Source: Wickerhamiella versatilis
Taxonomy: Eukaryota
Assembly: GCA_030867685.1 (NCBI GenBank)
Contig: JAQOWU010000004.1
Location: forward strand, 1 to 64,000
Reading direction: 5' to 3'
DNA length: 64,000 nucleotides
In this document: positions 1,968 through 49,975 of the stretch, in pieces
Position numbering within the stretch: the first letter of the stretch is position 1
How the letters are laid out: each line of letters opens with the position of its first letter
The notes under the pieces: model-generated
What the model was told of the DNA's origin: nothing
Seen by the model: the letters and a program-made list of their open reading frames with translations, nothing else
Database searches by the model: none
Position numbers and translations under genes: made by a program

Positions 1968-3083
1968 CTACAGCTTTCCAACTTCAGCCAACCCCCACTT
2001 GTAAACTGGAAAACGAGATCTTACATCGTCCACACTCCACACGTTCCGAGTTTCATGGACGTCTGCCCATACGGTCTCGTCATAACTGGATTCACCCTCC
2101 CCATTATATATGTCAGAGTCTCTAACGCTTCCTCCTAGTCCACGTTTATATATCCATTGAACCATTATGGGTGGCCACACAGTAAATGATTCGATATTGC
2201 CCTTTCCTATTTCTGATTGAATCATAATATCGATAGGCATGTCAGAATCAATTGCTTGTCTGACGAGCATGCGCCTAGCCCCCCTACGACTAATTGCATA
2301 ACCAGTCGTACAACCTGGGGTCCCACTCTTTCTTATTGTCCGCTTGCCAACTCCTATATCGAAAGATTCTACCAAGGAGAAGTCATAGCGGAAAGATACT
2401 GAGCCAGGGTCTTCATATACGTTGAAGATGTCTGAAAAATCGTTCCCTTCGCCGCAGGCTCCAAAGTATATCATATCCCAGGAACTACCCCAAGGATGTG
2501 ATTTTGTGGCATTCAACCCTAAAGCTCTGTCACCGCTCAGCTTATTTAGTGCCTTAGCCATCCGCTCTGATTGCTTGCGAATATCTATACCGAATGCTGC
2601 ATCCCCTTCCAGAATGAGTGCGTTTTCCCACCCTTCCTTGAGTATTAGCTTCCAAACATTAGCATGTGAGCGAGCGCATGCCCACTGTGCTCGGTGCCCA
2701 CGATCAGTAGGTAAGGTTCCATACTGATTGGACGACGGGGGGTAGCCTGTTTTTCCGTCGTCAATAGAGTCGGCAAGCACTGAGTCTTCGACATCCCACT
2801 GTAGCCCTGACAGGTCTGCCTGCAAAGCCATAGCATCAGAGAGGTCATGTCGAGAAGGCAGGTTGAGGAAAATGATTTTTTGAAATCCAAGTGTTTCGTT
2901 CCCGGCAGCTTCGAAATCGAGGGTTTCAGAAGCTAAAGAAAGCGGCAGGCCAGATGATTTGAAGGATAACCCACTGAGGTGTCTAGCTACAGCAACCCCT
3001 ATGACAACCAGGATTAGGAAAGTTGTCGTAAACTTCCACTGGCGAAAAGGAAAAGAGGCCATTGTGACGCGAAAAAGTGACAT
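1968..3083 (-). CDS. Glycosyltransferase family 25-like, type II membrane protein (paralog 1)
   Basis: Motifs NETLGFQKIIFLNLPSRHD, ACARSHANVW, LILEGDA, CTTGYAISRRGARRML; N-terminal TM segment. Start trimmed from the 3317 ORF start to ATG 3083 (MSLFRV; 3062 is an alternative) because this matches paralog length and a TATA-like element lies at ~3130. Confidence 0.8.
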   Translation of the reverse strand: MSLFRVTMASFPFRQWKFTTTFLILVVIGVAVARHLSGLSFKSSGLPLSLASETLDFEAAGNETLGFQKIIFLNLPSRHDLSDAMALQADLSGLQWDVEDSVLADSIDDGKTGYPPSSNQYGTLPTDRGHRAQWACARSHANVWKLILKEGWENALILEGDAAFGIDIRKQSERMAKALNKLSGDRALGLNATKSHPWGSSWDMIYFGACGEGNDFSDIFNVYEDPGSVSFRYDFSLVESFDIGVGKRTIRKSGTPGCTTGYAISRRGARRMLVRQAIDSDMPIDIMIQSEIGKGNIESFTVWPPIMVQWIYKRGLGGSVRDSDIYNGEGESSYDETVWADVHETRNVWSVDDVRSRFPVYKWGLAEVGKL

Positions 3084-3678
3084 AGTTATTCCTGTACCGA
3101 AACCTTCCCTGTTACGCGAAAGTGTGATTATATAAATTGAAATGAGACTGGGTCGACACAGCAAGACAGCATAGGTACGATGAGACCCGCAGGGAGCCAG
3201 GTGTGAAATTAGAGGTCTGAATAAGAAGAAATAAAACTTATTGGTTCTAGCTGACTTTACAGTATTATATCGTAATTCAAGTGCGCTTTGAAAAGATCCA
3301 ATGATGGAAAATGTCATTTATTCTCTCAACGCTACAATTACTAATACGTTCTACATATGCAGGGTCGCAGGGTAGCCCACCACTTGAGTCTCATCGGAGC
3401 GCCATCCTCCTGTAAAGACTACTTAATGTCAATTTTTTGCATGGTACATTTGATGTTTAGAAAAGATCTAGTGGTACCCTGCTCATATTTATTCTAAGGG
3501 GATGCTCATATCATATGACGAAGCCATTCTCTATCGGATCATAAGTACACGGGGTTTAGCTGGTAGCAAATACCTTTAGTATTGACCACAAATCTCGAGT
3601 ATTTGCTAGAACACCATTACATATCTCTAGCGAAAATGACATTATTTAAGTCACTCTCCAACCGAAAATGGAGGATAA

Positions 3679-4201: not shown

Positions 4202-5275
4202 ATGAAGAAAGCATCTTTTGGTAAAAGGATGGCCACTCGAGCGGTGATTCTAGTATCCTACATTTTATTGGTTATATTAGCCATTTGGCCCGATAGCAGG
4301 TATCCTAAAGTGTTGTTCAATGCTGCAGGTAATAGTTCGCGGGGCTTCGAAAAAATAATTTTTGTAAATCATCCTTATCGCAAGGATAATGCCAATATAA
4401 TGTCACTCGAAAGTCACTACTCCGGCATAGAGTACTTGACATCCAAAGAAGCAGACTACTATGAGTCTAAGTCCGACAAAAACGATCTTCCATCTGTAGA
4501 TGTAGCTTGCGCGTTATCACATATGAATGTCTGGAAACTAGTTCTGGAAAAAGGCTGGGCGTCAGTCCTCATCCTGGAGTCTGATGTAACTTGGGATGAG
4601 AACATCAAGAACATATCCAAACGAGCTGCAAAGGGTCTAGATACGCTGATAAATGAGAAGCGACTTAGACAAGGTGGAAGTCAGCCATCTCCGCAAGATC
4701 CATATAATGTAGAGCAGTGGGACTATTTCTCATGGGGGACCTGTTTCGACGAAGAGCGATTTGAGGCCAGTGCATCCGGCATTTACGTGAAATACCCTGA
4801 TGTCGACTCCCCAAATTGTGAATACGGCTGGCCAGAGGATGATGTGAACGATACGCTTGTAGACGAACGCATAATGAGGAAGGCTGGCTTTCCAATCTGT
4901 ACTAATGCCTATGCTTTGACTGCCAAAGGAGCCGAGAAGCTACTCCTTCGGAAGTCGCTGTTTTCAAATGGCTCTGTAGATTTAAAAATGGCTCAGGAAA
5001 TCGATAAAGGAAATTTAGTGGGTTATGAGATGTTTCCACCACCAATGTATCAGTGGCGCTATGTTGGTGATACCGGGGCAGATGGACTAAACCCTGACAT
5101 AGCTTCGGAAGAGAGGCAAGAAGAAAATATCAGTAATATTGAAGAGAAATGGAGCCAATCCCAAGACCCTAGCTTTTTCTGGGAAATTAACCATCGTAAC
5201 TACCCATGGCCGTATAAGCATTGGGTATTGAACAGGATAGCTGAAAATATGGTGTCAAAGAACACCTCTTCTTAA
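4202..5275 (+). CDS. Glycosyltransferase family 25-like (paralog 2)
   Basis: N-terminal TM; GFEKIIFVNHPYRKD, ACALSHMNVW, LILESDV, CTNAYALTAKGAEKLL; collinear with the other two GT25 ORFs. Confidence 0.8.
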   Translation: MKKASFGKRMATRAVILVSYILLVILAIWPDSRYPKVLFNAAGNSSRGFEKIIFVNHPYRKDNANIMSLESHYSGIEYLTSKEADYYESKSDKNDLPSVDVACALSHMNVWKLVLEKGWASVLILESDVTWDENIKNISKRAAKGLDTLINEKRLRQGGSQPSPQDPYNVEQWDYFSWGTCFDEERFEASASGIYVKYPDVDSPNCEYGWPEDDVNDTLVDERIMRKAGFPICTNAYALTAKGAEKLLLRKSLFSNGSVDLKMAQEIDKGNLVGYEMFPPPMYQWRYVGDTGADGLNPDIASEERQEENISNIEEKWSQSQDPSFFWEINHRNYPWPYKHWVLNRIAENMVSKNTSS

Positions 5276-22600: not shown

Positions 22601-24180
22601 TTACGTTGCATAAAGAAACCTGGGATTAAGGTCGCCTGCCATTACCTTATCCTCGAAACTCAGTCTCTCCCAATTAGAGTCTTCTTTTCCATCCCGTCTG
22701 CGTTTGTTAACGCAGATTATCCCTAAAAAATAAACTGTGCACGTTACGAGAGAAAATACCATAAGAGCCAAACAAGTCCATATACCTCGTGAATAGTTGG
22801 GCGCATCCTGAGGTCGAAAAATGAATGATGATACGATGCCTCCTATATTTGCGAACCCCACAATCCAAGCAGAGCTTACTAACTTTCGATAATGTCCAGC
22901 GAAGTTCATACTCGTCCAGCAAACTATGATTGACATAAGACTGATTGCTCCAAGTATAATAAGGAAGCAAGCAACATACCTTGGGTGACTATTGGCAGGA
23001 TTTCCATTTGAGTCAACGGCATCGAATCCCAGAAGCAAGGAGAAACCTGCAATAGAAATCAGCCCAGTAAAGATGGTAAAGAGGTAGCGATGTTGTAGGA
23101 AATCTGAAAGAGCACCAATAATAATGGCACCGCCAAAGCTTGTCAACCATGGGTATATGGAGTAAGCCTGTACACTTACAGGATCGTCTTGCAACGTTTT
23201 GATGATGCTTGTTGCAAAATATGCGTAACTGTACGACCCAACAATCACTCCGAAGTACATTGCACCCCCAACGAATACTTTCCAGTCTTTGAAAACAGAA
23301 AGAATATCTCTAAGGGTTACTTTCGCATTAGCCAAAGATTTGCCTTGATCTAGCTGGTGCTTACGAATTTGGTATTTCCGCTCGTTCTCTGTCAGAAATT
23401 TCGCATCCTCAGGAAAGTCAGCTATGAGGAAGAATAAGATCATGCCACAAGCACAGGTGATCGCACCTTCAATGATGAAGATCCAAAGCCAGCCTGCTAT
23501 TCTCTGCTTTCCATCCAGCGTGTTCATGCCATATGCAATTAGTCCGGCGAAAGCTCCAGCTAGAGATGTCGAGCCATAGAAAAAACAAAATCGCTTGAGT
23601 GCCTCTCTTCGGAGAAGCCATCCTCCTAGAAGATAGAAACAACCAGAGAGCATCCCAGCCTCGAATAAACCGAGAAGGGTTCGTGTCGTATAAAGGGCAC
23701 ATTTCGAAGTCACAAACCCCTGGCCAATCGTGATTCCACCAAAGCATATGATACACAAAGAGAGCCATACGTGAGGCTTCAAGAGCTTAAGCAGGTAATT
23801 TGCTGGGACCTCAAAAACAACATATGGACAGTAAAATAAGGCCAGCGCAACATTGAGTCGATTTCCTTCAAGGTTAGCCCCTCTCATATATTTTCCACCT
23901 GGCTGAGGTCCCGAAGAGATACATACGTTTTGGCATTACTGATATTAACGCGATCAATGAAGCTCAAAAAGTACAGAAGACAAATAGGCAGCACGATCCA
24001 ACAGTCGATCTTTAGTTGAAGCTTCCAGGGAGTTATTTCATATTCTTTTGCTAATTCTTGAACAGTCTTATCAGTTTCCACCGTATTTTGAAACCTAAAG
24101 TTTTCCTCTTCTGTAGATTTAGTGGTAATATGCAAGTTGGATTCTGTGCTGGGGGGCGAGATCTTTCTTCTACTATCCAT
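22601..24180 (-). pseudogene. Frameshifted Tna1-like MFS (ACS family) transporter, paralog of 29693-31276
   Basis: ORFs 23884-24180 and 22601-23887 are the N- and C-parts. Against the paralog there are 8 instead of 9 nt after KTY (~23920), i.e. a 1-nt deletion. Confidence 0.8.
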
Positions 24181-25222: not shown

Positions 25223-26848
25223 ATGTCCGACACGTGCGAAAGAGATTATACATGTGCGGAGCCGGAGTTAGGAAGAGGAGCGGAGGAAAAAGTCACCACG
25301 AATGTGACGAATTCTAAAATAGATACACTCCACTTAGTTCAACATGCGGAAAATGCTGATCAAGCAATGAAATATGCACATAACAGTCATGAGTTCGACC
25401 AGGTTGGCAGGGACATAGAACGGAAATTAAAGCGAAAAACTGACTTGTTTGTGATGCCTCTGCTTATTATTATATATGCATTACAGTTTGCAGATAAGGT
25501 ATCAAACGGAGGAGCTTCAGTAATGGGCCTGCGCTCGGATCTAAACATGAAGGGAAACATGTATTCATGGGTTGGGGTAAGTTTTTATCTCGGCGAGATT
25601 GTGGGACTCATCTTTGTTTGGTCTCTTATCCAGAAATTCCCAGCTGCAAAGTTAACAGCAACCATGATTACTGCGTGGGGAGTAATCATGGCCTGCTCTG
25701 CTGCCAGCCAAAATTACGCCGGATATATCGCATGCCGCGTTTTACTTGGAATGGTAGAGGGAGTTGTGACGCCAGCCTTCTCTTTAATCACAACACAGTG
25801 GTATCGTCGAGATGCTGGTGAACAGTTTTCACGCACAAACTTTTGGTTTGGAGCCAATGGTATCGGCTTAATTATTGGCACATCCCTGGCTTATGGTTTC
25901 TACATACGCGATTCGTCTACCATAGCCGGATGGCGTGGTCTTTTCATCTGTCTTGGCTGCATGACAATTGTTTTTGGGATCGTGTTTTTTGTTCATATCC
26001 CCGATGACCCTTTAAAAGCGTGGTTTCTAACTGACGATGAAAAAATGTGGCAAGTTGAACGTATCCGTCGCAACAATAAGGGATTTGGTAGCCATCATAT
26101 TAAATCATATCAAATCAGAGAATGTCTCAAAGATTTACGTTGGTATCTGTATATGGCAATAATGTTTTTGGGCTGTATACCTATCGGAGGACTGACCAAC
26201 TTTGGCACTATCATCCTTGGGGGTATCATTAAGGGAAATGCTGTACCAGTAATAGAAGGGGACCCCAGAATGAACGATATTTCAGCTCGTTCCCTACTCA
26301 TGCAGTTGCCACAGGGCGGTACATCGTTTGTTGGGTGTGTACTGGTTGGTGTGGCCTCTTCATATATTCTTAAAAATTACAGAACACTTTACGGAGTATT
26401 TATCGGCATGATCAATATATTAGCGTTCTGTTTTCTTGCATGGGGATTCAATTCGGGTAGCAGGCTTTTTGGTCTCTACACTTGTGTATGGAGTAGTACT
26501 GCTTTGCTTATCGTAAATCTCTCGTGTATTCAATCAAATATGGGAGGGACAACAAAGACTCTAGTGGCAACAGCTAGCTGCATGCAGTTTTACTGCTGTG
26601 GTAACGCTCTAGGTTCAAGCGACGCTCTTTTTAAGCCGTCCGAAGAACCAGATTATCATACAGCCAAGGTAACCATGGCAGCATGTGCTTGCATTCAGAC
26701 ATTCCTCATAGCAAGTCTTTATGTAGTGTACCTGGTTGAAAACAAATTGCGTGACCGAAAAAATGAAAAACTTCCACCAGGCATTGATCATCCTGAATTT
26801 GCTGATCTCACAGACATGGAAAACCCCGAATTCAGATACGTTTATTAG
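25223..26848 (+). CDS. Allantoate/ureidosuccinate permease-like MFS (Dal5 family)
   Basis: LQFADK, LGMVEGVVTPAFSLITTQWYRR, PDDPLKAWFLT, C-terminal EFADLTDMENPEFRYVY. Confidence 0.85.
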   Translation: MSDTCERDYTCAEPELGRGAEEKVTTNVTNSKIDTLHLVQHAENADQAMKYAHNSHEFDQVGRDIERKLKRKTDLFVMPLLIIIYALQFADKVSNGGASVMGLRSDLNMKGNMYSWVGVSFYLGEIVGLIFVWSLIQKFPAAKLTATMITAWGVIMACSAASQNYAGYIACRVLLGMVEGVVTPAFSLITTQWYRRDAGEQFSRTNFWFGANGIGLIIGTSLAYGFYIRDSSTIAGWRGLFICLGCMTIVFGIVFFVHIPDDPLKAWFLTDDEKMWQVERIRRNNKGFGSHHIKSYQIRECLKDLRWYLYMAIMFLGCIPIGGLTNFGTIILGGIIKGNAVPVIEGDPRMNDISARSLLMQLPQGGTSFVGCVLVGVASSYILKNYRTLYGVFIGMINILAFCFLAWGFNSGSRLFGLYTCVWSSTALLIVNLSCIQSNMGGTTKTLVATASCMQFYCCGNALGSSDALFKPSEEPDYHTAKVTMAACACIQTFLIASLYVVYLVENKLRDRKNEKLPPGIDHPEFADLTDMENPEFRYVY

Positions 26849-27152
26849 ATTAGATTTCGTTGGCTCTAGCATATAACCATTGACATATTACTCAACATGT
26901 TAGATAGAGGTAAATTTTGCAAAGATAGCCCACTTTTAGCTTTATATATTCCGCTTATATCAAAAAGCTTGGAAATTTTGTGGGGTCATTTCATCGTGTG
27001 TGCGGATTAGTAATGTTAAGTTCATGTTAAGTCTGGTCGGCAGTTATCTATGTATATCCCTTAGCCCATAGCAATCGTTAGCCCATGTCCTGTATAGCAT
27101 TACACTGCTCGAGAAATAAAGTTATAAGGTCATAAGTTAGAGATTGATGAAT

Positions 27153-27590
27153 TTAAGATATTTTTGTTTCATTTTTTATAAGAATACTCAGACACGAAGT
27201 AATCAAAGCTATAATAACAATGAAGGCGACAATTATTGAGATCCTTGCTGCAGGATATAGTCCACATAGAAGTGCCTTTTGGGTTGAAAAGTATCTCAAG
27301 GTCCCAATAATAGAGAATATTAGCCCAATGACAATAAATAAGATTCCGATGATCTGCCCAGCCCTCTGGAATTCCCCCATACGTCCCACATGGCCATTTA
27401 GTTGAAAAAGTTGGGTAACGACGACACCTGCACTGACTGCAGTAAGACCTGTTCTCATCCAAGCAAGAAATGTCCTCTCATTGGCAAGATGGTCTCGAGC
27501 AACACTATTATGGTTTTCCAGGTAAAGCTCTAGCTCGAGCCCCTTCATGAAGGTTAGTAACACATCGACATCCATGTCAAAATTGTCCAT
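27153..27590 (-). CDS. DUF202 (YidH/Vtc1-like) 3-TM membrane protein
   Basis: ARDHLANERTFLAWMRT plus three hydrophobic segments. Confidence 0.85.
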   Translation of the reverse strand: MDNFDMDVDVLLTFMKGLELELYLENHNSVARDHLANERTFLAWMRTGLTAVSAGVVVTQLFQLNGHVGRMGEFQRAGQIIGILFIVIGLIFSIIGTLRYFSTQKALLCGLYPAARISIIVAFIVIIALITSCLSILIKNETKIS

Positions 27591-27604
27591 AGACGTTACT
27601 ATTA

Positions 27605-27949
27605 TTAGACCCTGGCTATTATAATTATAAGGGCAATGTATGACCCAATCGTAAATGCCGAATTAATGGCGACTAAACGGCCACCGGTGATAAATTTCTT
27701 GAAGCTTGAAGCCTCAAATTCGCGTTCAACACGAAAGGAGTGATATAAAGCAAAGCAAATATTTAATATAGCATGTATTGTGAGTACAAGGGCAACCGGT
27801 ACATACTCCTTTGCGAAGAGTCTCAGAATGAGGAGCGCCAACGAGATTTCCGAGAAAAAAGCGCGAGCATACGTTCCCTCAAATGTTCTATAAGACGCTC
27901 GAATATCTTGGCGAACGCTTTTTGGCAACACGCCGATTTCTGAAGGCAT
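27605..27949 (-). CDS. Divergent DUF202-like 3-TM membrane protein
   Basis: IRASYRTFEGTYAR (variant of the RTF..Y/W.R motif) plus three TM segments. Confidence 0.65.
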   Translation of the reverse strand: MPSEIGVLPKSVRQDIRASYRTFEGTYARAFFSEISLALLILRLFAKEYVPVALVLTIHAILNICFALYHSFRVEREFEASSFKKFITGGRLVAINSAFTIGSYIALIIIIARV

Positions 27950-28333: not shown

Positions 28334-28379
28334 TTGGACAAATTTGCGTAGCCCATATATGGCTATCTTGCACTGTCCA
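28334..28379. repeat. Inverted pair of 41-bp repeat fragments
   Basis: TTGGACAAATTTGCGTAGCCCA (-, degenerate), spacer TATAT, GGCTATCTTGCACTGTCCA (+). Confidence 0.7.
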
Positions 28380-28446
28380 CATGTATATATAATTTATCAA
28401 GACTAATATACAGTATCAAAGGTACGCTCCCCAAGTACGTGGTGCC

Positions 28447-28472
28447 GTGGGCTATCTTGCATTGTCCACCAG
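28447..28472 (+). repeat. 41-bp repeat fragment capping the left end of a duplicated segment
   Basis: GTGGGCTATCTTGCATTGTCCACCAG. Confidence 0.95.
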
Positions 28473-28794
28473 ATATTGATCATCCTGAATTTCCACAGAC
28501 ATGGAAAACCCCGAATTCAGATACGGCTATTAGATAAGATTTCGTTGGCTCTAGCACATAATCATTGAGATGTTACTCAACATGTTAGACAGAGGTGAAA
28601 TTTGCAAATGTTTAGCTTTCTATATCTCGCTTACATCACAATGCTTGGAAATTTTGTAGGGTCATTTCATCGTGTGAGCGGATAAGTAATGTTGAGTTCG
28701 TTAAGTCTGGTCGGCAGTTATCTATGCATATCCCTTAACCCATATCAATCGTTAGCCCATGTCCTGTATAACATTACATTGCTTGAGCAACAAA
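28465..28794 (+). repeat. Diverged direct copy of 26773-27120 (3' end and 3' flank of the Dal5-like gene)
   Basis: Shared blocks ATTGATCATCCTGAATTT, CACAGACATGGAAAACCCCGAATTCAGATACG, GTTAAGTCTGGTCGGCAGTTATCTATG, AATCGTTAGCCCATGTCCTGTATA. Confidence 0.95.
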
Positions 28795-28851
28795 TGCAAC
28801 ATAGCCCACTTCACTAACTGAGACTGCTTGGACATTGCAAGATAGTCCACT
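28793..28851 (-). repeat. 41-bp repeat, ~1.4 tandem units capping the right end of the duplicated segment
   Basis: AATGCAACATAGCCCACTTCACTAACTGAGACTGCTTGGACATTGCAAGATAGTCCACT. Confidence 0.95.
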
Positions 28852-29692: not shown

Positions 29693-31276
29693 TTAAAGCG
29701 CGTAGACAAATTGAGGGTTTATGTCTCCAGCGAGTGCCTTCTGATCATCGCTCAATTTGTCCCAGTCGTCATTTTCCGCACCCGTACTCCGGCGTTTGTT
29801 AACAAGATATACTCCAAAGAAATAAACAGTAGTCGCTGCGAGAGAAAATAACATCAGTGCAAGACAAGTCCAAGCTCCCCGTGAATATTTCGGAGCATCT
29901 TGAGTCGTAAAAATGAAAGCTGAGACAATTCCACCGATATTTCCAAACCCAACAATCCAAGCAGAGCCCACCATCTTACGATGGTGACCAGCTAGGTTCA
30001 TAATCGTCCAGCAAATCATAATTGGCATGAAACTGTATGTTCCAAGGGTCACCAAGAAGCATCCGGCATATCGAGCGTTTACATTCGTGGGGTTCCCGTC
30101 AGAATCGACAGGGTTAATGCCGATAAGCATGGCAAACCCAGCAATGCATATGATGCATGTAAGGATGGTAAACAGAAAGCGGTGCCTTAAATAGTCAGAT
30201 ATAACCCCAAAGATAATACTACCTCCGAAGCTCACGAGCCAGGGATAAATAGAATATACTTGAACGGAAACTGGGTCCTGGTGCATAGTCTGAATAATAG
30301 ATGTTGCAAAATACGCATAGCTGTATGCTGCCACGACAGATCCAAAGTACATAACAGCCGCAGCATGTACCTTCCAGTCCTTCAAAACTGACAACATATC
30401 TGAAAGAGTGACATCTCGACGAGCCAACGAACGACCCTGATCTAGTTGCAGCTTGTGGACCTGGTAAGCGCGTTCATTTTCAGATAAGAACTTTGCATCT
30501 TCCGGAAAATCTGCTATCAAGAAGAACAGTATAATTCCGCAAGCACACGTAATAGCACCCTCGACGATGAAAATCCATCTCCATCCAGCTATCGATTGTT
30601 TTCCTTCCAATGTATTCATTCCATATGCAATTAGCCCCGCAAAAGCGCCCGCCAAGGAAGTTGATGCAAAGAAGAAGCAATAACGTTTAAGAGCCTCATC
30701 TCGCCGAAGCCAGCCTCCCAGAAGATAAAAGCATCCGGGGAACATTCCAGACTCGAGAAGTCCTAGCAATACTCGGGTGGTATAAAGACCGCCCTTGGAA
30801 GTAACGAAACCTTGGGCAATTGTGACTGCTCCGAAACATATGATGCACAGGGAAAGCCAGACATGTGGTTTCAGTTTCTTGAGCAACCAATTTGCTGGGA
30901 TTTCAAAAACAACATATGGACAGAAAAACAGCGCTAGAGCAACATTAAATTGATTTCCTTCAAGGTTCGCACCTCCCATATATCGCCCTCTTGGATCAGG
31001 CCCACTATTCAAGCCATAGGTCTTTGCATTACTGATATTAACACGGTCGATGAAGCTAAGTAAATATAAGAGACAGATGGGGAGAAAAATCCAGCAATCT
31101 ACCTTCAGCTGAAGCTTCCATGGTGTCACCTCATAATCCTTTTGCAGTTTTCGAAGAGTATCGTCTACTTCAGTTTTACTGGGTAGTCTGAAACTATCTC
31201 CATCGTTCATTTCGCTAGCATCACTTGGTTGCGTCTCCATAGGTTCCACTTTTCCCTTCTGAGGGCTAGACGACAT
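29693..31276 (-). CDS. Tna1-like MFS (ACS family; nicotinate/organic-anion permease-like)
   Basis: LSFIDRVNISNAK, YVVFEIPAN, GLLESGMFPG, GWRWIFIVEG, DFPEDAKFL, C-terminal LAGDINPQFVYAL. Confidence 0.85.
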   Translation of the reverse strand: MSSSPQKGKVEPMETQPSDASEMNDGDSFRLPSKTEVDDTLRKLQKDYEVTPWKLQLKVDCWIFLPICLLYLLSFIDRVNISNAKTYGLNSGPDPRGRYMGGANLEGNQFNVALALFFCPYVVFEIPANWLLKKLKPHVWLSLCIICFGAVTIAQGFVTSKGGLYTTRVLLGLLESGMFPGCFYLLGGWLRRDEALKRYCFFFASTSLAGAFAGLIAYGMNTLEGKQSIAGWRWIFIVEGAITCACGIILFFLIADFPEDAKFLSENERAYQVHKLQLDQGRSLARRDVTLSDMLSVLKDWKVHAAAVMYFGSVVAAYSYAYFATSIIQTMHQDPVSVQVYSIYPWLVSFGGSIIFGVISDYLRHRFLFTILTCIICIAGFAMLIGINPVDSDGNPTNVNARYAGCFLVTLGTYSFMPIMICWTIMNLAGHHRKMVGSAWIVGFGNIGGIVSAFIFTTQDAPKYSRGAWTCLALMLFSLAATTVYFFGVYLVNKRRSTGAENDDWDKLSDDQKALAGDINPQFVYAL

Positions 31277-32479: not shown

Positions 32480-32502
32480 AGTGGGATATCTTGCAAGATA
32501 GC
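32480..32502. repeat. Two opposed 41-bp repeat fragments fused through the TGCA palindrome
   Basis: AGTGGGATATCTTGCA overlapping TGCAAGATAGC. Confidence 0.6.
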
Positions 32503-32830: not shown

Positions 32831-33976
32831 ATGCACCTATCTAGCCTCCTTCTCCTATCGCTTGGCACGACGTTCGCTGCACCCACTGACCCTGAACTGG
32901 AGCTGGTAGCACGGGGCGATTCAACAAGATTTCCTTTCCCCTATATTGGTGAATCATTGAAAGATTATGCCGAGCAATTAATCTCTTTTCTCTCGAATAC
33001 ATTCATCGGAAGCGTTGACGCTTTGAGGGCTGTTTCATATATCGCACCAACCCCATCCATTGATTGGAATTGCAACTTCCACAAAGCTTCAATGAAAACA
33101 GACGACCTTCCAAACTTCGACAGTGAGTTTTACTCGGTTAGCGGGGTCGACCATGGATCTGTGAAGTGGCTTATTGAGGCTGAGGGTCGGACAGCGGACG
33201 ATCCCGTCGTCTTCTATGTCCATGGAGGTGGCTATGTCTTTGGATTGTTCCCAATGATGACGGGGGAATGGATCAATATTTGGAAGGATTTCAACGTCGA
33301 AAGTGACAGGCTCTCCGTGCTGGCACTTGACTACTGGGTGGCCCCGAAGGAAGGTACGTGGCCTGCGCCCCTGAAGCAAGCGGCTGCCGTATACAATGAG
33401 CTGACCAAAACATCCAATAATATTATACTTGCTGGAGATAGTGCAGGCGGGCACTTGGCACTCAGCCTGTTTCGTCATATCAAGCACCCCGTGGATTCGG
33501 TGGATGAAATCAGCAAGAAGCCCCAGGGGCTCGTGGCGTGGAGTCCATGGGTAAACATCTTCCCAAACCAGGGAAATGGCACAAGGAATGGAACCTATGT
33601 AACCAATGATGGATTGGATCTCTTGAGTGCTAACAGCCTATCGGCTATGGGCGAGCTTTCTGTACCCGATGAGGAGACACGTACCTCATCAACAATGAAC
33701 ATGTGGAAAGACTACATTGACTGGTACGATATTCTACCAGACGACAAAAGTAAGATTTTTGTTTCATATGGCGATCAAGAGGTGTTGAAGGGAGATATTC
33801 TCACATGGTTAGACATAGCAAAGCTACCAAACTCAGGTGCTACAATTCACCGCGATCTTGCTGGATGCGAGAAATGCTTGTTCCAATCAGGTACACATGA
33901 TAATGTGTTATTCAATTTGAAAGAGTCGGGGATTCATAACGGAACTGTCACGTTCCTCACTGACAATTTTGCGTGA
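32831..33976 (+). CDS. Secreted HSL-family lipase/esterase (Say1-like)
   Basis: YVHGGGY, LAGDSAGGHL, SPWVN; signal peptide from ATG 32831 (MHLSSLLLLSLG); TATAAAA at 32773. Confidence 0.85.
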   Translation: MHLSSLLLLSLGTTFAAPTDPELELVARGDSTRFPFPYIGESLKDYAEQLISFLSNTFIGSVDALRAVSYIAPTPSIDWNCNFHKASMKTDDLPNFDSEFYSVSGVDHGSVKWLIEAEGRTADDPVVFYVHGGGYVFGLFPMMTGEWINIWKDFNVESDRLSVLALDYWVAPKEGTWPAPLKQAAAVYNELTKTSNNIILAGDSAGGHLALSLFRHIKHPVDSVDEISKKPQGLVAWSPWVNIFPNQGNGTRNGTYVTNDGLDLLSANSLSAMGELSVPDEETRTSSTMNMWKDYIDWYDILPDDKSKIFVSYGDQEVLKGDILTWLDIAKLPNSGATIHRDLAGCEKCLFQSGTHDNVLFNLKESGIHNGTVTFLTDNFA

Positions 33977-34172
33977 GATCGCATATATCTTAACTATAGC
34001 ACTAATCTTGTTGACAGTTAAGGAATCCATGAATCTCTTCATACTTCTGATTTATAATGGCATATGTCATAGAGCATAGGGTGTGGCTTAATGATAAGGA
34101 ATTAACCGGTAAACTCGAGACGAGGGCCTTAAAGTGCCTGGAAAATACCGTTTAGGGTTCGTGCATGCAGCG

Positions 34173-34215
34173 CTTCACTACCTGAGACTGGTTGGACAGT
34201 GCAAGTCACTTCACT
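34173..34215 (-). repeat. 41-bp repeat unit with an internal deletion
   Basis: CTTCACTACCTGAGACTGGTTGGACAGTGCAAG-TCACTTCACT. Confidence 0.92.
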
Positions 34216-34417
34216 GGCTAATATAAAGTGATTCAGAAACAGTTTAATTAAATATTTGATACCTAAATGGCCCACAGTCTGCTCAGGTCCTAGAGCTTAA
34301 ATATGTCACCGTTATGAGTGTGCTTGTTAAAACAAGGTCCATCCGATAATGACTAATTGAACTGGATTTAATATGGGAGTAATGAGTCCATCCAAAGCCA
34401 ATGGGTAGGAGCACTGA

Positions 34418-34459
34418 AGCCCACTTCACTACCTGAGGCTGGTTGGAAAATGTAAGATA
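34418..34459 (-). repeat. 41-bp repeat, full unit in a different permutation
   Basis: AGCCCACTTCACTACCTGAGGCTGGTTGGAAAATGTAAGATA. Confidence 0.92.
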
Positions 34460-34850
34460 ATAGCGCACTATGGTAACTCTAGCATTCAAAATATTTCATC
34501 CAGGTGGAAGGTATTTAAGAATTGATATAGGCGGGAAACTAAGTGTTAAGTTGCGCTTGATTACTTTGCATTCAATGATGCTGATGTATTCGAGGCTAGG
34601 TTTCAAATCCTCGAGGATCAGCATTCTTTGAGAACCAATGTTATATGACTAACAGGAGGTGTGTATAAATTTTTGACTTCGACTTCATGATTGTACAACT
34701 GGGTTCGGATGTCATTAGTGTATAGTTTCTAGTTCAATGATCTGAAAATTATCCGCGCCAAGATTGAATTGGCTCCAATGGTTTAACTTTGAGTAGTCTA
34801 AAAACTTGCTCATGGGGAGAAAATTGTTCATCTGATTATTAATATAGGCT

Positions 34851-35951
34851 ATGCCAAGATATGTCCTTCGCACATTGGTCTTAACCTGGGCTATAGCTCT
34901 CACATTGCTAGCATTACTCGCTGGAAATTCATTTTATCAAAATAAAGATTATGAGGGCTACAAGGGCCTTGGAATGCCCACCAGGCCGAGAAGTGCATCT
35001 AGCCAATTTGCATCAACCACAAATGACACAATGGGATTTTCTGAGATAGCCTTTATCCGGTTACCTCATAGATATGATCAAGAAGATGTAATGACTTTTC
35101 AGGGCATATTAGCAAAGCTTAAGTATAAGTCCTATGATGCTGTTGACAGTCAAGATGTCGAAAAAGACTATCGCGGTCTACCCCCGGCCAGGTCTCAAGA
35201 TCTAAGTTCATCGGAGCTGGCATGTATTAGATCACATGCTAATGTATGGCAAAAAATGCTACAAAATAATTATTTATCAGTTCTCGTCCTAGAAGGTGAT
35301 GCGACTTTCGATGTCGATATACGCGATCAAACGTTCCGACTGGCAAGGGCCTTTCAAGATCTTCTGTCCTCCCTGAATTTGATAGTAAATAATACGGATG
35401 AGGATCCTTGGAATTGCGAAAGCTGGGATATCTTGAATTTTGGGGCTTGTTTCGAAGGCGGGGAATTTTCGAATCTCTATAGGACATATGATGATCCTGG
35501 CACTCCATCTATATTATATGACTATCCAGAGACCAATACCGCCTTTGAGACTAAAGAAGGAGAAAGGATAGTTCGGCGGAGTGGGCGACCAATATGCACG
35601 ACAGGCTATGGGATTAGCCGTCGCGGCGCACTCAAGATGCTCCTAAGGATGTCACTGGAAAGTTCACGGGCTTTAGATCTCGTAATGGCCCAGGAAAACC
35701 TCAAAGGCACTGTTGAGTCTTACACAGTATGGCCCCCATTAATACATCAATGGGAATATAAGGATGGAGTCAATACTCAGAGCTCTGACATTCATAATGT
35801 TGACAAGAATGAAGATTATGATCCAAATATATGGAAAGATGTATTTCTGCAAGCGAATGTCTGGCAAGTGAGAAAAGAATATCAACAGTGGCACATGAAC
35901 AACTGGACACTAGCTCAAATAGGACGAGAATCGGGATTAGCATTCGTCTGA
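34851..35951 (+). CDS. Glycosyltransferase family 25-like (paralog 3)
   Basis: N-terminal TM; NDTMGFSEIAFIRLPHRYD, ACIRSHANVW, LVLEGDA, CTTGYGISRRGALKML. Confidence 0.82.
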   Translation: MPRYVLRTLVLTWAIALTLLALLAGNSFYQNKDYEGYKGLGMPTRPRSASSQFASTTNDTMGFSEIAFIRLPHRYDQEDVMTFQGILAKLKYKSYDAVDSQDVEKDYRGLPPARSQDLSSSELACIRSHANVWQKMLQNNYLSVLVLEGDATFDVDIRDQTFRLARAFQDLLSSLNLIVNNTDEDPWNCESWDILNFGACFEGGEFSNLYRTYDDPGTPSILYDYPETNTAFETKEGERIVRRSGRPICTTGYGISRRGALKMLLRMSLESSRALDLVMAQENLKGTVESYTVWPPLIHQWEYKDGVNTQSSDIHNVDKNEDYDPNIWKDVFLQANVWQVRKEYQQWHMNNWTLAQIGRESGLAFV

Positions 35952-36303: not shown

Positions 36304-39300
36304 CTAGTGGAGCAGAACTATCGCAAGAGCTATAGCCGTGAACATACCCTTAACCGGTTCCAGTGAATGTCCAGAATTTGCTACCTCAGGAACTGAATTC
36401 GAGGGCTGGGCAACACTAGGAGCATTATTCGATTCAATGGCTTGTGAAGCCGATGCGGGTCCACTAGATGATGAGGCCGCTGAGCCTGAAGGCTGAGCAA
36501 CACTAGGAACATTATTTGATTCAATGGCTTGTGAAGCCGATGCGGGTCCACTAGATGATGAGGCCGCTGAGCCTGAAGGCTGAGCAACACTAGGAACATT
36601 ATTCGATTCAATGGCTTGTGAAGCCAAAGCTGGTCCAATGGTTAATGTTGGGACCGCTGAGCCAGAAGGCTGATTGCTTAGAGCTTCGGCTACACTACCA
36701 GTCTGAGTACAGTCGCAATCCTCTAGGGTGAGGGTGGTAGCTTGCGTAACCGTGTACGTTGTACCGCCATATGCAAACGTAGTAGGACTGGGACAAGGGA
36801 TAGTGGTATACTTGGTACTCTCAGCTGTTACAGTAGTGCCTTCAAATACATTAGGGGTCTCTACAGTGACCTCGGGAACGGTGTAAGTCCTACCACCACT
36901 GGTGATCACCTCATTGGTGCTGATAGTAGTAGGAGCCGTACCAGTGTAGCCAATGGTAGTGGTCACACCCGGAATACCATTGGTGGGGGTCTCGACGGTG
37001 ACATCTGGAACAGGGTAGATCTTGCTACCGCTAGTCATCACCTCATTTGTGCTGATGGTGGTGGGCGCTGTGCCAGTGTAGCCAATGTTGGTGGTCTCGC
37101 CTGGGAAGTTCCCAAGAGGGGTATATGTCATGGATAACGATACATTTTCACTGCGTGAGATGCTGCTACTTCTGATAACTGGTGGGACATTCTGACTAGA
37201 CTTCATAGTCGGAGTCTCGACGGTGACATCTGGAACGGTGTAGATCTTGCTACCGCTAGTGATCACCTCATTTGTGCTGATAGTGGTGGGCACAGACCCA
37301 GTGTAGCCAATGGTGGTAGTCTTACCCGGAATACCATTGGTGGGGGTCTCGACGGTGACATCTGGAACAGTGTAGATTTTACTACCACTATTGATCCCCT
37401 CATTTGTACTGATAGTGGTGGGCACAGAACCAGTGTAGCCAATGGTGGTAGTCTTACCCGGAATACCATTGGTGGGGGTCTCGACGGTGACATCTGGAAC
37501 AGTGTAGATCTTGCTACCGCTAGTGATCACCTCATTTGTGCTGATAGTAGTGGGAGTGGTGCCAGTGTAGCCAATGGAGGTAGTCTCACCTGGAATACCA
37601 TTGGTAGGGGTTTCGACAGTGACATCTGGAACAGTGTAGATCTTGCTACCGCTAGTAACCACCTCATTTGTGCTGATAGTAGTAGGAGTGGTGCCAGTGT
37701 AGCCAATGGAGGTAGTCTCACCTGGAATGCTATTGGTGGGGGTCTCGACGGTGACATCTGGAACAGTGTAGATCTTGCTACCGCTAGTGTTCACCTCATT
37801 TGTGCTGAGAGTAGTAGGATAACTACCTGTCCATGCAACCGTAGTGGTCTCACCTGGAATACCATTGGTAGGGGTCTCGACGGTGACATCTGGAACAGTG
37901 TAGATCTTGCTACCGCTAGTGATCACCTCATTTGTGCTGATAGTGGTGGGCACAGAACCAGTGTAGCCAATGGTGGTAGTCTTACCCGGAATACCATTGG
38001 TGGGGGTCTCGACGGTGACATCTGGAACAGTGTAGATCTTGCTACCGCTAGTGATCACCTCATTTGTGCTGAGAGTAGTAGGATAACTACCTGTCCATGC
38101 AACCGTAGTGGTCTCACCTGGAATACCATTGGTAGGGGTCTCGACGGTGACATCTGGAACAGTGTAGATCTTGCTACCGCTAGTGATCACCTCATTTGTG
38201 CTGATAGTAGTGGGAGTGGTGCCAGTGTAGCCAATGGAGGTAGTCTCACCGGGAATACCATTGGTAGGGGTTTCGACAGTGACATCTGGAACAGTGTAGA
38301 TCTTGCTACCGCTAGTGATCACTTCATTTGTGCTGATAGTGGTGGGCACAGACCCAGTGTAGCCAATGGTGGTAGTCTTACCCGGAATACCATTGGTGGG
38401 GGTCTCGACGGTGACATCTGGAACAGTGAAGATCTTGCTACCGCTAGTGATCACGTCATTTGTGCTGAGAGTAGTAGGATAACTACCTGTCCATACAACC
38501 GTAGTGGTCTCACCTGGAATACCATTGGTGGGGGTCTCGACGGTGACATCTGGAACAGTGTAGATCTTGCTACCGCTAGTGATCACCTCATTTGTGCTGA
38601 TAGTGGTGGGCACAGAACCAGTGTAGCCAATGGTGGTAGTCTTACCCGGAATACCATTGGTGGGGGTCTCGACGGTGACATCTGGAACAGTGAAGATCTT
38701 GCTACCGCTAGTGATCACGTCATTTGTGCTGAGAGTAGTAGGATAACTACCTGTCCATACAACCGTAGTGGTCTCACCTGGAATACCATTGGTAGGGGTC
38801 TCGACGGTGACATCTGGAACAGTGTAGATCTTGCTACCGCTAGTGATCACCTCATTTGTGCTGATAGTGGTGGGCACAGAACCAGTGTAGCCAACGGTGG
38901 TAGTCTTACCCGGAACACCATTGGTGGGGGTCTCGACGGTGACATCTGGAACAGTGTAGATCTTGCTACCGCTAGTGATCACTTCATTTGTGCTGATAGT
39001 AGTAGGATAACTACCTGTCCATGCAACCGTAGTGGTCTCACCCGGAACACTATTGGTGGGGGTCTCGACGGTGACATCTGGAACAGTGTAGATCTTGCTA
39101 CCGCTAGTGATCACGTCATTTGTGCTGAGAGTAGTAGGATAACTACCTGTCCATGCAACCGTAGTGGTCTCACCTGGAATACCATTGGTAGGGGTTTCGA
39201 TGGTGACATCTGGAACAGTGTAGATCTTGCTACCGCTAGTAACCACCTCATTTGTGCTGATAGTAGTGGGAGTGGTGCCAGTGTAGCCAATGGAGGTAGT

Positions 39301-40515
39301 CTCACCGGGAATACCATTGGTGGGGGTTTCGACAGTGACATCTGGAACAGTGTAGATCTTGCTACCGCTAGTGTTCACCTCATTTGTGCTGATAGTGGTG
39401 GGCACAGAACCAGTGTAGCCAATGGTGGTAGTCTTACCCGGAATAACATTGGTGGGGGTCTCGACGGTGACATCTGGAACAGTGTAGATCTTGCTACCGC
39501 TAGTGATCACCTCATTTGTGCTGATAGTAGTAGGAGTGGTGCCAGTGTAGCCAATGGAGGTAGTCTCACCTGGAATACCACTGGTGGGGGTCTCGACAGT
39601 CACATCTGGGACAGTAAAGGTCCGATCATATGTGGTTTTCAACTCATTCTTACTGAGGGTGGTAGGAAATGTTCCCGTCCACGCAACCGTAGTCGTTTCA
39701 CCTCCTGCCGTTGGAGTTTCAATAATTTCAACTGGTGTCGTTGAACTACCCTGTGGGACTTCTGTAACAAACGTAGTAGTAAATGTTCCCTGCCATGGCA
39801 ACGTACTCGTTTTAACTGGACATTCTTGCTTACTCCAATCGATCTGATATAAATTCTCGAGTGGGCTATATGAGTCACTTCCAGGCTTCATCACCGAGAT
39901 ATTGAGACGCGATTGCGTTAAGCGGTTCACATAAACTAACTCCATCGGATACACAAGATTACTATCCAGTTCAACAGAAAGTCTCGCACCATCTAAGGTG
40001 GCAAACAAATCAAACTTGTTGCCTACATTCTGGCTCACATTTTCACAGCATGCACGAGCACCTCCTAGTCGCAAGCCCGCGTCATCGTCAGCTTCCAGGT
40101 AAAACGTGTAAATACCTGAGGTTGGAGGTATATAGTAAGCCGTCATATTCATAGTAAAGTTGGTTATGGTGATATCGTTTCCAAACACATTACTATAGGC
40201 GGTATACCACCATTGTTGCAAGCTATTGTTATAGTAGTTCCAATACAACGAATTCCCTTCGATACCAGTCGCTGAAATCTGGTTGCCTTGATCATCATTA
40301 TAAGGGCCAAAATGTCCGAAGTCTGCAGTAATCTTACGAAGGTCGTTGTCGTAAAGTTCAACACCAACCTCCCATTTCCAATAGTCAACATTGAATCCGC
40401 GTGACCCTAACTCAAGGGGTCTGGTGCATCCATTCACGGACACGCTGCTGGAACTCTCAGCCAACACAGACGGGATGGTCTGAAGTAGCAATACAATACG
40501 ACTTAAGGGGCCCAT
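36304..40515 (-). CDS. Flocculin/adhesin: signal peptide, PA14/GLEYA-type lectin domain, Thr-rich repeat stalk, GPI signal
   Basis: TAYYIPPTSGIYTFYLEADDDA (DD Ca2+ motif), VYPMELVYVN; 44-aa repeats ending TVPDVTVETPT; hydrophobic C-terminus. Confidence 0.92.
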   Translation of the reverse strand: MGPLSRIVLLLQTIPSVLAESSSSVSVNGCTRPLELGSRGFNVDYWKWEVGVELYDNDLRKITADFGHFGPYNDDQGNQISATGIEGNSLYWNYYNNSLQQWWYTAYSNVFGNDITITNFTMNMTAYYIPPTSGIYTFYLEADDDAGLRLGGARACCENVSQNVGNKFDLFATLDGARLSVELDSNLVYPMELVYVNRLTQSRLNISVMKPGSDSYSPLENLYQIDWSKQECPVKTSTLPWQGTFTTTFVTEVPQGSSTTPVEIIETPTAGGETTTVAWTGTFPTTLSKNELKTTYDRTFTVPDVTVETPTSGIPGETTSIGYTGTTPTTISTNEVITSGSKIYTVPDVTVETPTNVIPGKTTTIGYTGSVPTTISTNEVNTSGSKIYTVPDVTVETPTNGIPGETTSIGYTGTTPTTISTNEVVTSGSKIYTVPDVTIETPTNGIPGETTTVAWTGSYPTTLSTNDVITSGSKIYTVPDVTVETPTNSVPGETTTVAWTGSYPTTISTNEVITSGSKIYTVPDVTVETPTNGVPGKTTTVGYTGSVPTTISTNEVITSGSKIYTVPDVTVETPTNGIPGETTTVVWTGSYPTTLSTNDVITSGSKIFTVPDVTVETPTNGIPGKTTTIGYTGSVPTTISTNEVITSGSKIYTVPDVTVETPTNGIPGETTTVVWTGSYPTTLSTNDVITSGSKIFTVPDVTVETPTNGIPGKTTTIGYTGSVPTTISTNEVITSGSKIYTVPDVTVETPTNGIPGETTSIGYTGTTPTTISTNEVITSGSKIYTVPDVTVETPTNGIPGETTTVAWTGSYPTTLSTNEVITSGSKIYTVPDVTVETPTNGIPGKTTTIGYTGSVPTTISTNEVITSGSKIYTVPDVTVETPTNGIPGETTTVAWTGSYPTTLSTNEVNTSGSKIYTVPDVTVETPTNSIPGETTSIGYTGTTPTTISTNEVVTSGSKIYTVPDVTVETPTNGIPGETTSIGYTGTTPTTISTNEVITSGSKIYTVPDVTVETPTNGIPGKTTTIGYTGSVPTTISTNEGINSGSKIYTVPDVTVETPTNGIPGKTTTIGYTGSVPTTISTNEVITSGSKIYTVPDVTVETPTMKSSQNVPPVIRSSSISRSENVSLSMTYTPLGNFPGETTNIGYTGTAPTTISTNEVMTSGSKIYPVPDVTVETPTNGIPGVTTTIGYTGTAPTTISTNEVITSGGRTYTVPEVTVETPNVFEGTTVTAESTKYTTIPCPSPTTFAYGGTTYTVTQATTLTLEDCDCTQTGSVAEALSNQPSGSAVPTLTIGPALASQAIESNNVPSVAQPSGSAASSSSGPASASQAIESNNVPSVAQPSGSAASSSSGPASASQAIESNNAPSVAQPSNSVPEVANSGHSLEPVKGMFTAIALAIVLLH
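36404..36625 (-). repeat. 87-bp (29-aa) coding repeat, ~2.5 copies
   Basis: SQAIESNNVPSVAQPSGSAASSSSGPASA. Confidence 0.85.
37207..39700 (-). repeat. 132-bp coding minisatellite, ~19 tandem units (2 more at ~36850-37110)
   Basis: The GTCTCGACGGTGACATCTGGAAC-type marker recurs every 132 nt from ~37213 to ~39589. Confidence 0.95.
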
Positions 40516-42083: not shown

Positions 42084-42136
42084 CAGTCTCAGGTAGTAAA
42101 AAGTGGGCTATCCTGCCTTATCTAACCAGTATCAGG
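42084..42136 (+). repeat. 41-bp repeat, ~1.2 tandem units
   Basis: CAGTCTCAGGTAGTAAAAAGTGGGCTATCCTGCCTTATCTAACCAGTATCAGG. Confidence 0.85.
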
Positions 42137-46525: not shown

Positions 46526-47731
46526 CGTTTTTGTATTTGTATGCAGATTAATAGCATACATCCATTAACTTCTGCATAGATAGGTTGAAATAACGTTGTA
46601 TGTATGTTTAACATATTCTGCAGATGGATCCCAGCTAATATTTTCTGGATTAAGCCCCTCTTGGAAGAAAATCGGGAAAGAATATCTTAATTTGAAGTAC
46701 AAGCATATGCACTGATTCTTTATATTTATGTTCTAATTTCCAAGGAAAAGCGTACGCGACTCGACAGGGTCGATATATTCTCTAAGACCACGCTGGCATA
46801 CCTAATTGCTGGTCGCAGGCATACAGCTATACACTACTTTTTTACAAATACTGCTGGAAATTTAAAAAATCTCTCTCCTTGCCACAGTTTTAACAGTTTG
46901 AAGTGAATGCCTGCCGAAAAAAAAATATTAGTCACTTTGGAGTCTAGAACAGGCCTAGACATCCCTCTGGAGACAGTTCTCTCTCATCTTGACTATACCT
47001 TTTCCGATTGCTTTTATTTTTGACTAGAAATAATTCTATTCATGGATGTGGCTCTACTTGCTTTTCTACTACCACTGAAGAGGCCATTGATAACAAACGT
47101 AACCGTCATTTTGGGCTTTCTAAGATGGGTTTTATCCAGTGTGTCTATAGACATGAAATAGAATTCGTAGCTTCTTTTGGCTCTTTATTACTATCCAACA
47201 ACAAATTTACTGATCTATATGGTTGGGCAAAATATGGATGCACAGATCTTGACGCCTTCCAACCATACTCACATTGTGCGATTGGTTGGGGAATAAGAGA
47301 TTTGTTTTCTTAAAGACAAAGCGAGAAGTGGTTCCAAGTTTTCAAAAAATTACACATTATTCGCCACTTCCCGATATTTCGACCTGCATCAATCTCAGAC
47401 AAAACTGCGACGAAAAGTTGCTACGCATCTGTAAAGTAATGCATTGTAGTGCAGTTTGCAGTATGTTACCACCTCACCCTGGCATGCGGATGTCAGCATG
47501 AAAAAATGCTATTTTTAACAGCGATGTAGAAATATGTAAAAACTTAGTGGATTAAGGATGTAAAAGAATACATTAAACTGACTGACATCTCAAATGGCTT
47601 AGCAGCGAACAGTGTCCTATCCACAGGAGCTCACATGTAAGTTTAATAAATGATTACTGGTCCGTTTGAGCTGTGCCCACCTTCCAGACAATTAATGTGA
47701 TCTTATGCTTACCAGTATATGATCAGAGGAT

Positions 47732-48319
47732 ATGGACCTTTCATTGATCGTGCATGGATTTAGTCGTCGAAAGTTTTCACTGAAGTCTTTTGGCGAAGTG
47801 ACGGAGCAAGGGCGTGGGACGACCCTTAAGGCACAATCACTTAATGCGAGCGCAAGTCATAATTTAATGGTTGAACACGAAAATAAGAGCAGCAAAATGT
47901 ATCTTGAAAGACAGTCTTCCTCAGTTGAGCGGTTTCCATATTCTAACACATCATCCCTGCAAAGTTTTGTTTTAGATGGTAGCATGGCCCTGTGTCGCTT
48001 GCACAATTCCCATAAAAACTATTCTGAAAATAGAATAAGGTGCGAAGACCATGGTGTTAAAAAGGGAACATCATCCTTCGCCTCCCTGGCCTATAACGAG
48101 AAATTAAGCCTAAAAGAACAACTCCTGATATCACGAGTTGGATTTAACGGTCTCTATCATTGCGAAATATGCCAGAAAAAATTTAGATACAAGACTGATC
48201 TCTCAAGGCATCTGTGTATTCATCTTGATATTCGTCCATATGCCTGTCCAATTCGTTCAAGAAGGTTTATACAGAAGAAGTCTTTAAATGTGCACGTAAA
48301 AACACACACGCGGAGGTAG
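47732..48319 (+). CDS. C2H2 zinc-finger protein; second finger degenerate
   Basis: YHCEICQKKF..L.RHLCIH, linker LDIRPY, then CPIRSRRF..L..HVKTH, which lacks the second Cys. Confidence 0.6.
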   Translation: MDLSLIVHGFSRRKFSLKSFGEVTEQGRGTTLKAQSLNASASHNLMVEHENKSSKMYLERQSSSVERFPYSNTSSLQSFVLDGSMALCRLHNSHKNYSENRIRCEDHGVKKGTSSFASLAYNEKLSLKEQLLISRVGFNGLYHCEICQKKFRYKTDLSRHLCIHLDIRPYACPIRSRRFIQKKSLNVHVKTHTRR

Positions 48320-49617: not shown

Positions 49618-49975
49618 TATTGTAGTGCAGTTTGCAGGTATGTATCACCTCATCCTGGCATGCAGATGTCAGCATGAAAAAATGCTATTTTTAACGGCGA
49701 TGTAAAAATATGCAAGAACCCAGTGTATTAAGGAACAAAAACAAATTAAACTTATTGAAGTCTCAAATGGCTTAGCAACGATCGGTATCCACGGGAGCTC
49801 ACATGTAAGTTTAATAAATGATGACTGATCCGTTTGAGCTGTGCCCACCTTCCAGACAATTTATGTGATCTTCGTGGGCTATCTTACCAGTATATGTCAG
49901 ATGATATATACTTTCATTAATCGTGCATGGATTTAATCGTCAAGAGCTGTCACTGAAATCTTTTTTGGCGAAGTG
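49618..49975 (+). repeat. Diverged direct copy of ~47443-47800 (upstream region and 5' end of the zinc-finger gene)
   Basis: Shared ATTGTAGTGCAGTTTGCAG, GATGTCAGCATGAAAAAATGCTATTTTTAAC, GGAGCTCACATGTAAGTTTAATAAATGA, TCCGTTTGAGCTGTGCCCACCTTCCAGACAAT. Confidence 0.93.

Follow-up and report, generated by a model that had tools for sequence, protein, structure and literature searches.

Two copies of a short duplicated segment in the budding yeast Wickerhamiella versatilis differ by a few letters that belong to a dispersed repeat, which raises the question of whether the longer copy gained these letters or the shorter copy lost them and, if they were gained, by what process they were laid down. 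The segment lies in a stretch of 64,000 nucleotides (contig JAQOWU010000004.1, positions 1 to 64,000; hereafter the window) with a G+C content of 39-49% and intron-poor, budding-yeast-like ORFs that encode several MFS and allantoate-permease-like transporters, a PA14/GLEYA adhesin, a nitrilase-type hydrolase and other proteins. The best named relatives of the mitochondrial phosphate carrier come from Starmerella (60%), Magnusiomyces (58%) and Blastobotrys (55%), whereas the MFS protein adjoining the locus has relatives at 70-71%, the best named being Priceomyces at ~42%; these protein relatives would place the host yeast near the Dipodascales. The gene content resembles that of a chromosome-end region, and in relatives belonging to Wickerhamiella/Starmerella foreign genes are described as accumulating in gene-poor chromosome-end regions, according to the text of PMC13376923. 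No chromosome end lies within the 64 kb, no telomerase RNA was found in the window (Rfam was blank), and a Pfam search of 27 ORFs of the window detected no reverse transcriptase or transposase.

The source segment and its copy (Table 1) align globally with 297 matches, 33 mismatches and three indels of 7, 9 and 2 letters. At the point of interest, here called site 1, the source reads TGCAAA, GATAGCCCACT and TTTAGC (26935-26940) and the duplicate TGCAAA, TG and TTTAGC, that is, 11 letters against 2, and the repeat spacings around the site (1685 before it, 1676 after it) agree with the resulting net difference of 9 letters. The original prediction, made from this stretch of DNA alone, had contrasted a longer source allele with a duplicate carrying TG, and both the direct sequence and the global alignment bear this out. 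Its description of the extra letters as a repeat end stopping at CCCAC(T) is also correct, these being the terminal ten letters of a 41-nt unit followed by T, and so is the absence of a target-site duplication, two host letters having been replaced. The claim that the letters continue the repeat from a host TGCAA stands as a resemblance and fails in exact register: before GATAG the unit reads TGCAA, to which the host adds one A (TGCAAA), and the continuation is shifted by that letter. The local match to the unit spans 26922-26935 (score 28, unit phases 30 to 2); the in-register host homology is AA only, or 5 letters with one base bulged, and the bulged TGCAA resemblance brings no gain in local alignment score (28 either way). 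Elsewhere in the duplicated segment (27050-27085 / 28726-28760), the source copy has two instances of TTAGCCCAT, against one in the duplicate, which also has one TTAACCCAT; these repeats look like the ATAGCCCAC end of the unit and may be chance matches or very old fragments.

Table 1 Coordinates of the duplicated segments, patch sites and repeat copies in the window
Feature	Positions	Strand	Description
Source segment	26773..27120	+	Final 76 nt of the MFS ORF 25223-26848 plus 272 nt downstream; ends at AAATAAA
Copy of source segment	28465..28794	+	90.0% identical to the source, gaps aside
Host letters TGCAAA	26918..26923	+	In both copies; like the unit's TGCAA before the fill, one A out of register
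Site 1 patch	26924..26934	+	GATAGCCCAC at 26924-26933 (terminal ten letters of the unit) plus T at 26934; TG in the duplicate
Short ("empty") allele of site 1	28603..28616	+	TGCAAA 28603-28608, TG 28609-28610, TTTAGC 28611-28616
Repeat copy at left end of duplicate	28439..28472	-	CCCAC end outward; junction in common letters CCACCAG
1.4 tandem units at right end of duplicate	28793..28851	+	TGCAA start, unit-end finish, pointing outward
Repeat fragment	28361..28379	-	Meets a degenerate plus-strand fragment (~28334-28360) end to end at CCCA(C) ends; ~70 nt left of the duplicate
Inverted short unit ends	32480..32502	.	Two, overlapping at TGCA; CCCAC-type ends outward
Repeat copy	34173..34205	+	Unit start to phase 32
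Repeat copy	34418..34465	+	Last 7 letters of the unit, then one further whole unit
Pair 2, copy A	47443..47800	+	Upstream region and start of the C2H2 zinc-finger ORF 47723-48319
Pair 2, copy B	49619..49975	+	89.9% identical to copy A, gaps aside; carries the patch
Site 2 patch	49872..49882	-	Minus strand: ATAGCCCAC plus GA; in the alignment, 8 extra letters at 49872-49879, only in copy B, the largest indel of the pair
Short ("empty") allele of site 2	47699..47713	+	GATCT, then TATGCTTACC

The repeat to which the extra letters belong has a unit of 41 nt, of which a natural copy occupies 28810-28850; its majority form consists of the letters of 34174-34198 followed by those of 63721-63736. With three tandem units as the query, 38 copies or fragments were found in the 64 kb at a local score of at least 22, compared with 1-5 per shuffle in 10 shuffles, and 29 of them score at least 25; a 15-mer from the 3' part of the unit has 25 matches with up to three mismatches against 1.9 expected. 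The copies are fragments of 13-89 nt, on average about one per 2 kb, on both strands (22 plus, 16 minus), and almost all are intergenic: ORFs make up ~51% of the window yet contain only one of the 29 better-scoring copies. Twelve of the 38 copies have their 3' end at the unit boundary …CCCAC (phases 40, 41, 1 or 2; binomial p = 2e-4), whereas the starts are spread over phases 8-35, with 2 of 38 at the boundary. The preference is real but partial, since the other 26 ends fall elsewhere, many at phases 28-38, and the decay of old copies may explain part of these. Eleven of the 29 copies scoring at least 25 cross the boundary head-to-tail and in register, with at least 6 letters on each side; CCCAC, through which they read into the next unit, therefore does not mark where a larger element stops. 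Sequences flanking the unit show no relation among copies, and neither a poly(A) or simple-repeat 3' tail nor a target-site duplication was seen at the two patch sites or in the copies inspected with their flanks. Rfam and tRNA scans of the repeat were blank, and folding of six copies as RNA gave no consistent structure (z-scores from -2.2 to +0.6).

The family extends well beyond the window. Sequencing-run depth over the unit reaches 3489 summed in some bins, against ~140-170 for single-copy DNA, and the very high summed depth at 34173..34205 arises because all copies collapse onto that one. Loose-end consensus sequences in the runs pass through the unit and then diverge, and two relatives 5-10% diverged (X4 and X5) carry unit copies with other flanks; the collapsed depth and these copies together indicate that the family is high-copy and older than those splits. 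No very deep tandem-array contig appears among the joints listed in the runs, and a 20-mer of the repeat has no match in viral contigs. Searches of main texts with 10-14-letter pieces of the unit returned no relevant paper. Shorter pieces are absent from the main text of the yeast-telomere papers, where the relevant genera are not mentioned, and no telomeric repeat sequence was found in text from a Starmerella genome paper.

The window holds a second site of the same kind. Self-comparison revealed only two non-coding duplicate pairs, 26773/28465 and 47443/49619, the latter with 311 matches and 35 mismatches, and the equal divergence of the two (90.0% and 89.9%) suggests that they may date from one period. 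Read on the minus strand, the long allele of site 2 consists of GGTAAG, ATAGCCCAC, GA and AGATC and the short allele of GGTAAG, CATA and AGATC, so that the patch 49872-49882 stands against 47704-47707, an 11-letter fill in place of 4 host letters. The adjoining host letters are AAG-C-ATA where the unit has AAGATA; the in-register host letters are ATA or AAG (thus 2-3 letters across both sites), and 5-6 letters match only with a one-letter bulge. The two sites are alike in that the fill ends at CCCAC plus one or two letters (T; GA), unit-like host letters adjoin it and a few host letters are replaced, and neither of the two (26924-26934, 49872-49882) has a target-site duplication. Among the four indels of at least 5 letters in the two pairs, two carry the end of the unit, and these are the largest non-coding indels of their pairs; the others are GCTGATC and TGTCC. 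There are thus two filled and empty pairs, both comparing paralogous copies inside one window. Other indels of the runs relative to the window (29665, 29678, 31768 and 31892) show no resemblance to the unit.

The long alleles at both sites are, in our judgement, probably insertions. The relative X5, ~6% diverged, is represented across 26853-27337 by one contig with 12 letters fewer and 1 more than the window (13 gap letters in all) and 27 other letters, all of these being totals for the contig; the duplicate is 11 letters shorter than the source across the part that it has in common with this contig, the length of which fits, if weakly, a short ancestral allele at site 1. X1 and X3 are identical to the window at site 1 and so add no independent allele, and no listed piece of X4 covers the site. 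A metagenome search based on the conserved C-terminus of the MFS protein returned two contigs with a distant yeast homologue, without nucleotide similarity or a copy of the repeat.

Loss rather than gain would mean that the progenitors held a 15-16-nt repeat fragment of the class that starts at TGCAA and that in one member of each pair this fragment was later shortened by its last 8-9 letters. Such a fragment is plausible as an ancestral state, given that fragments running from TGCAA to CCCAC occur elsewhere in the window (28795-28809 and 32480-32495), and loss would automatically account for the unit-like letters kept beside the gap in the short alleles. It would, however, take two independent deletions, each in a 15-nt target within ~350 nt and each with an edge 0-2 letters from the unit boundary, as well as extra changes, namely CT turned into TG at site 1 and, at site 2, the gain of a G on the plus strand. 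Small deletions are generally commoner than insertions, and this general excess favours loss, whereas the lengths of the X5 contig and the duplicate fit, weakly, the short ancestral state. On balance we consider loss unlikely; were the short alleles deletions, the finding would amount to the ordinary decay of an old repeat.

Larger arrangements of the repeat surround the duplicate of site 1 and recur farther along. The duplicate 28465-28794 is bracketed by inverted repeat copies with their CCCAC ends outward, and the letters at its junctions, CCACCAG on the left and ACAA(A) on the right, are common to the unit and the source. The inverted pair itself (28447-28468 / 28829-28850) is 91% complementary and lacks a target-site duplication at 28447/28850. 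The captured segment extends as far as an AAATAAA that lies between convergent genes and would also fit a copy of an mRNA 3' end, which is a hint only, as the junction has no A-run. Each of the spacers that adjoin repeat copies (28380-28446, 63608-63714 and others) occurs only once in the window. Between 34173 and 34465, two same-strand repeat pieces are split by 212 nt (34206-34417) that interrupt the unit between phases 32 and 35; in other contigs in the runs, possibly from other loci, these pieces are joined directly with 0-1 letters between them. A contig of the relative X4 matches the window over 33671-34202, up to the first repeat piece, and continues with ~850 nt that do not fit the window; an apparent rearrangement breakpoint between relatives at ~34202 thus coincides with a repeat copy.

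For the insertions, the explanation that we favour, at roughly an even chance of being correct, is that microhomology primed a short templated synthesis at a break, that the unit boundary fixed one end of the fill and that end-joining followed. The 348-nt segment would have been duplicated first and its source copy then broken between TGCAAA and TTTAGC, with the loss of two host letters; ~11 letters would have been laid down by a polymerase copying a template with the 41-nt unit, and the ends joined without a target-site duplication. Synthesis would be fixed at the unit boundary (…CCCAC) on one side and set by microhomology on the other, either by priming on the host (TGC)AA at the upstream 3' end and run-off at the template end CCCAC, or by a start at the template end (GTGGG…, on the other strand) and joining back via the TT/TTGCA letters. 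The original prediction had proposed templated extension of a broken 3' end followed by end-joining, at a time later than the duplication; this order, with gain instead of loss, is the more probable one on the grounds given above. The anatomy of the site, its recurrence at 49872-49882 and the pile-up of copy ends at the unit boundary fit templated, end-defined synthesis and subsequent end-joining; the two options yield the same product, and the data fit synthesis of either strand.

The patch at 49872-49882 would have been made by the same process, as probably would most other short repeat fragments in this gene-poor, chromosome-end-like region. The template would most likely be an RNA and the enzyme a reverse transcriptase, either telomerase or one like it, if the unit is telomeric, or that of a retroelement. 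Telomerase is attractive because the anatomy matches that of mammalian telomerase-made interstitial repeats and because putative telomeric motifs of yeasts reach 43 nt; the reverse transcriptase of a retroelement would fit equally well, if it copied a small RNA and gave tandem units by jumping between templates. Head-to-tail units are expected from a repeating or re-used template, a bracketed duplicate is expected if a free fragment was extended at both 3' ends and then captured, and the end-to-end pair at 28334-28379 is expected from the joining of two extended break ends. A bolder version, of rather low probability, is that the lineage has a break-sealing enzyme, either a telomerase with an unusually long template of ~41 nt or a specialised reverse transcriptase paired with a small RNA of its own, that routinely patches chromosomal breaks and caps free fragments at their two ends by running off a single RNA template; it would have left hundreds of phase-defined scars that mark breaks, captures and rearrangements in chromosome-end domains.

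The patches could instead have been copied from DNA, with a broken or stalled 3' end annealing by microhomology to a genomic copy of the repeat, copying a few letters and returning, so that neither RNA nor reverse transcriptase would be involved. Repeat copies are dense enough to serve as donors, and the letters that follow CCCAC in the patches (T; GA) could be donor flank, given that T follows the copies at 42103-42112 and 63727-63736 and G follows the one at 28447-28456, but the GA of site 2 follows CCCAC in none of the copies in the window. A deficit of DNA-repair genes in the Wickerhamiella/Starmerella clade, described in the text of PMC13376923, would suit such copying. Because DNA copying offers no reason for both patches to stop 1-2 letters from the unit boundary and leaves the initial spread of the family unexplained, we regard it as improbable.

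Distinctly improbable, too, is a cut-and-paste transposon in which the unit would be the terminal inverted repeat, 28447-28850 an element with a captured host fragment and the patches excision footprints. The inverted pair around the duplicate and the palindromic mini-copy at 32480-32502, both with outward CCCAC ends, have the required form, and excision footprints with terminal letters and microhomology joins are known in several transposon families. Yet each footprint would here carry letters of one end only, most copies are unpaired and there is only one clear inverted pair; the head-to-tail copies run past the supposed terminus, no target-site duplication accompanies 28447/28850 or either patch, and the 27 ORFs searched with Pfam include no transposase. 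Chance resemblance of the extra letters to the repeat has a negligible probability: although some 10-letter match to the unit, in any phase and on either strand, should arise a few times per 64 kb, and local scores of 20-24 are frequent under the null, GATAGCCCAC itself is present as an exact 10-mer 5 times in the window where 0.07 would be expected, and two of the five fall exactly on the indels of sites 1 and 2, in the same unit phase, which rules chance out.

The fill-in at breaks that we favour has its closest counterpart in mammals, in which telomerase inserts short interstitial telomeric sequences at double-strand breaks (PMC2246262; PMC8537989). The account in PMC2246262 describes empty sites with 1-5 nt in register, sometimes random letters and inverted pieces at the insertions, and the putative telomeric motifs of budding yeasts given in PMC7857110 range from 5 to 43 nt. 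On these descriptions, the present sites resemble the mammalian insertions in their filled and empty states, the lack of target-site duplications, the occasional extra random letters, the head-to-tail units and, at some loci, pieces in opposite orientation, and may resemble them in a few in-register host letters. They differ from them in the 41-nt unit, which is not a known telomeric repeat, in patches of only a quarter unit, in the budding-yeast host, in the comparison of paralogous copies instead of species and in a density that is much higher than that of known telomerase-made interstitial repeats.

Other known systems have features in common with the sites. These include 5'-truncated non-LTR retroposition, endonuclease-independent insertion of reverse transcripts and the capture of Ty1 cDNA or mitochondrial DNA at breaks in yeast. 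Likenesses are a partial preference for one fixed end, with the opposite end variable and its junction showing microhomology, the loss of a few target letters and the capture of other cellular sequence, here the 330-nt gene-end fragment 28465-28794; in contrast to these systems, the repeat has no poly(A) or other tail, a unit of 41 nt, common tandem units and no reverse-transcriptase gene in the window. A non-LTR or SINE-like retroposon inserted by target-primed reverse transcription was considered as a class assignment and set aside, as neither its target-site duplication nor its 3' tail was found at the patches or the copies inspected. MITE and Pack-type DNA transposons and their excision footprints offer a likeness to 28447-28850, with inverted ends around a captured host fragment, and differ in that target-site duplications are lacking, tandem copies continue past the "terminus" and most copies lack a partner. 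Assignment to a TIR DNA transposon or MITE was likewise rejected, in that paired termini with a constant target-site duplication, and a repeat end acting as physical terminus, were not found in the window.

The repair of breaks with telomeric or reverse-transcribed sequence is already known; what would be new are the 41-nt unit, the quarter-unit patches, their density, the capping of a captured gene fragment and the budding-yeast host. Should the patches prove to be templated fill-ins, every fragment of the repeat in the genome would be the record of a past chromosome break and its repair. A budding yeast would then offer a tractable system for the repair of internal breaks by reverse transcriptase or telomerase, so far mostly a matter of mammalian inference, and the process could help to explain the capture and shuffling of gene fragments in gene-poor chromosome-end regions.

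Several other genes of the window are of note. Bacterial-type families are encoded at 1968-3317, 4202-5275, 34851-35951, 55768-57462 and 57830-59287 (three paralogous family-25 glycosyltransferases, a galactarate/altronate dehydratase and a Mem_trans transporter); their surroundings are gene-poor and lower in G+C and recall the foreign-gene-rich chromosome "end domains" of Wickerhamiella/Starmerella described in the text of PMC13376923. The PA14/GLEYA adhesin-like ORF 36304-40515 (minus strand, 1403 aa) contains a 132-nt internal repeat array at ~37208-39703, with repeats 85-92% alike. An allantoate-permease-like gene at 22601-24180 (minus strand) is split into the overlapping ORFs 22601-23887 and 23884-24180 while its paralogue at 29693-31276, with ~70% DNA identity, is intact; the split gene is probably a frameshifted pseudogene or contains an unrecognised intron. 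The DUF202 gene at 27153-27949 (minus strand) is similarly divided into ORFs 27153-27590 and 27605-27949, with 14 nt between them that may reflect a small intron, a stop codon or a frameshift.
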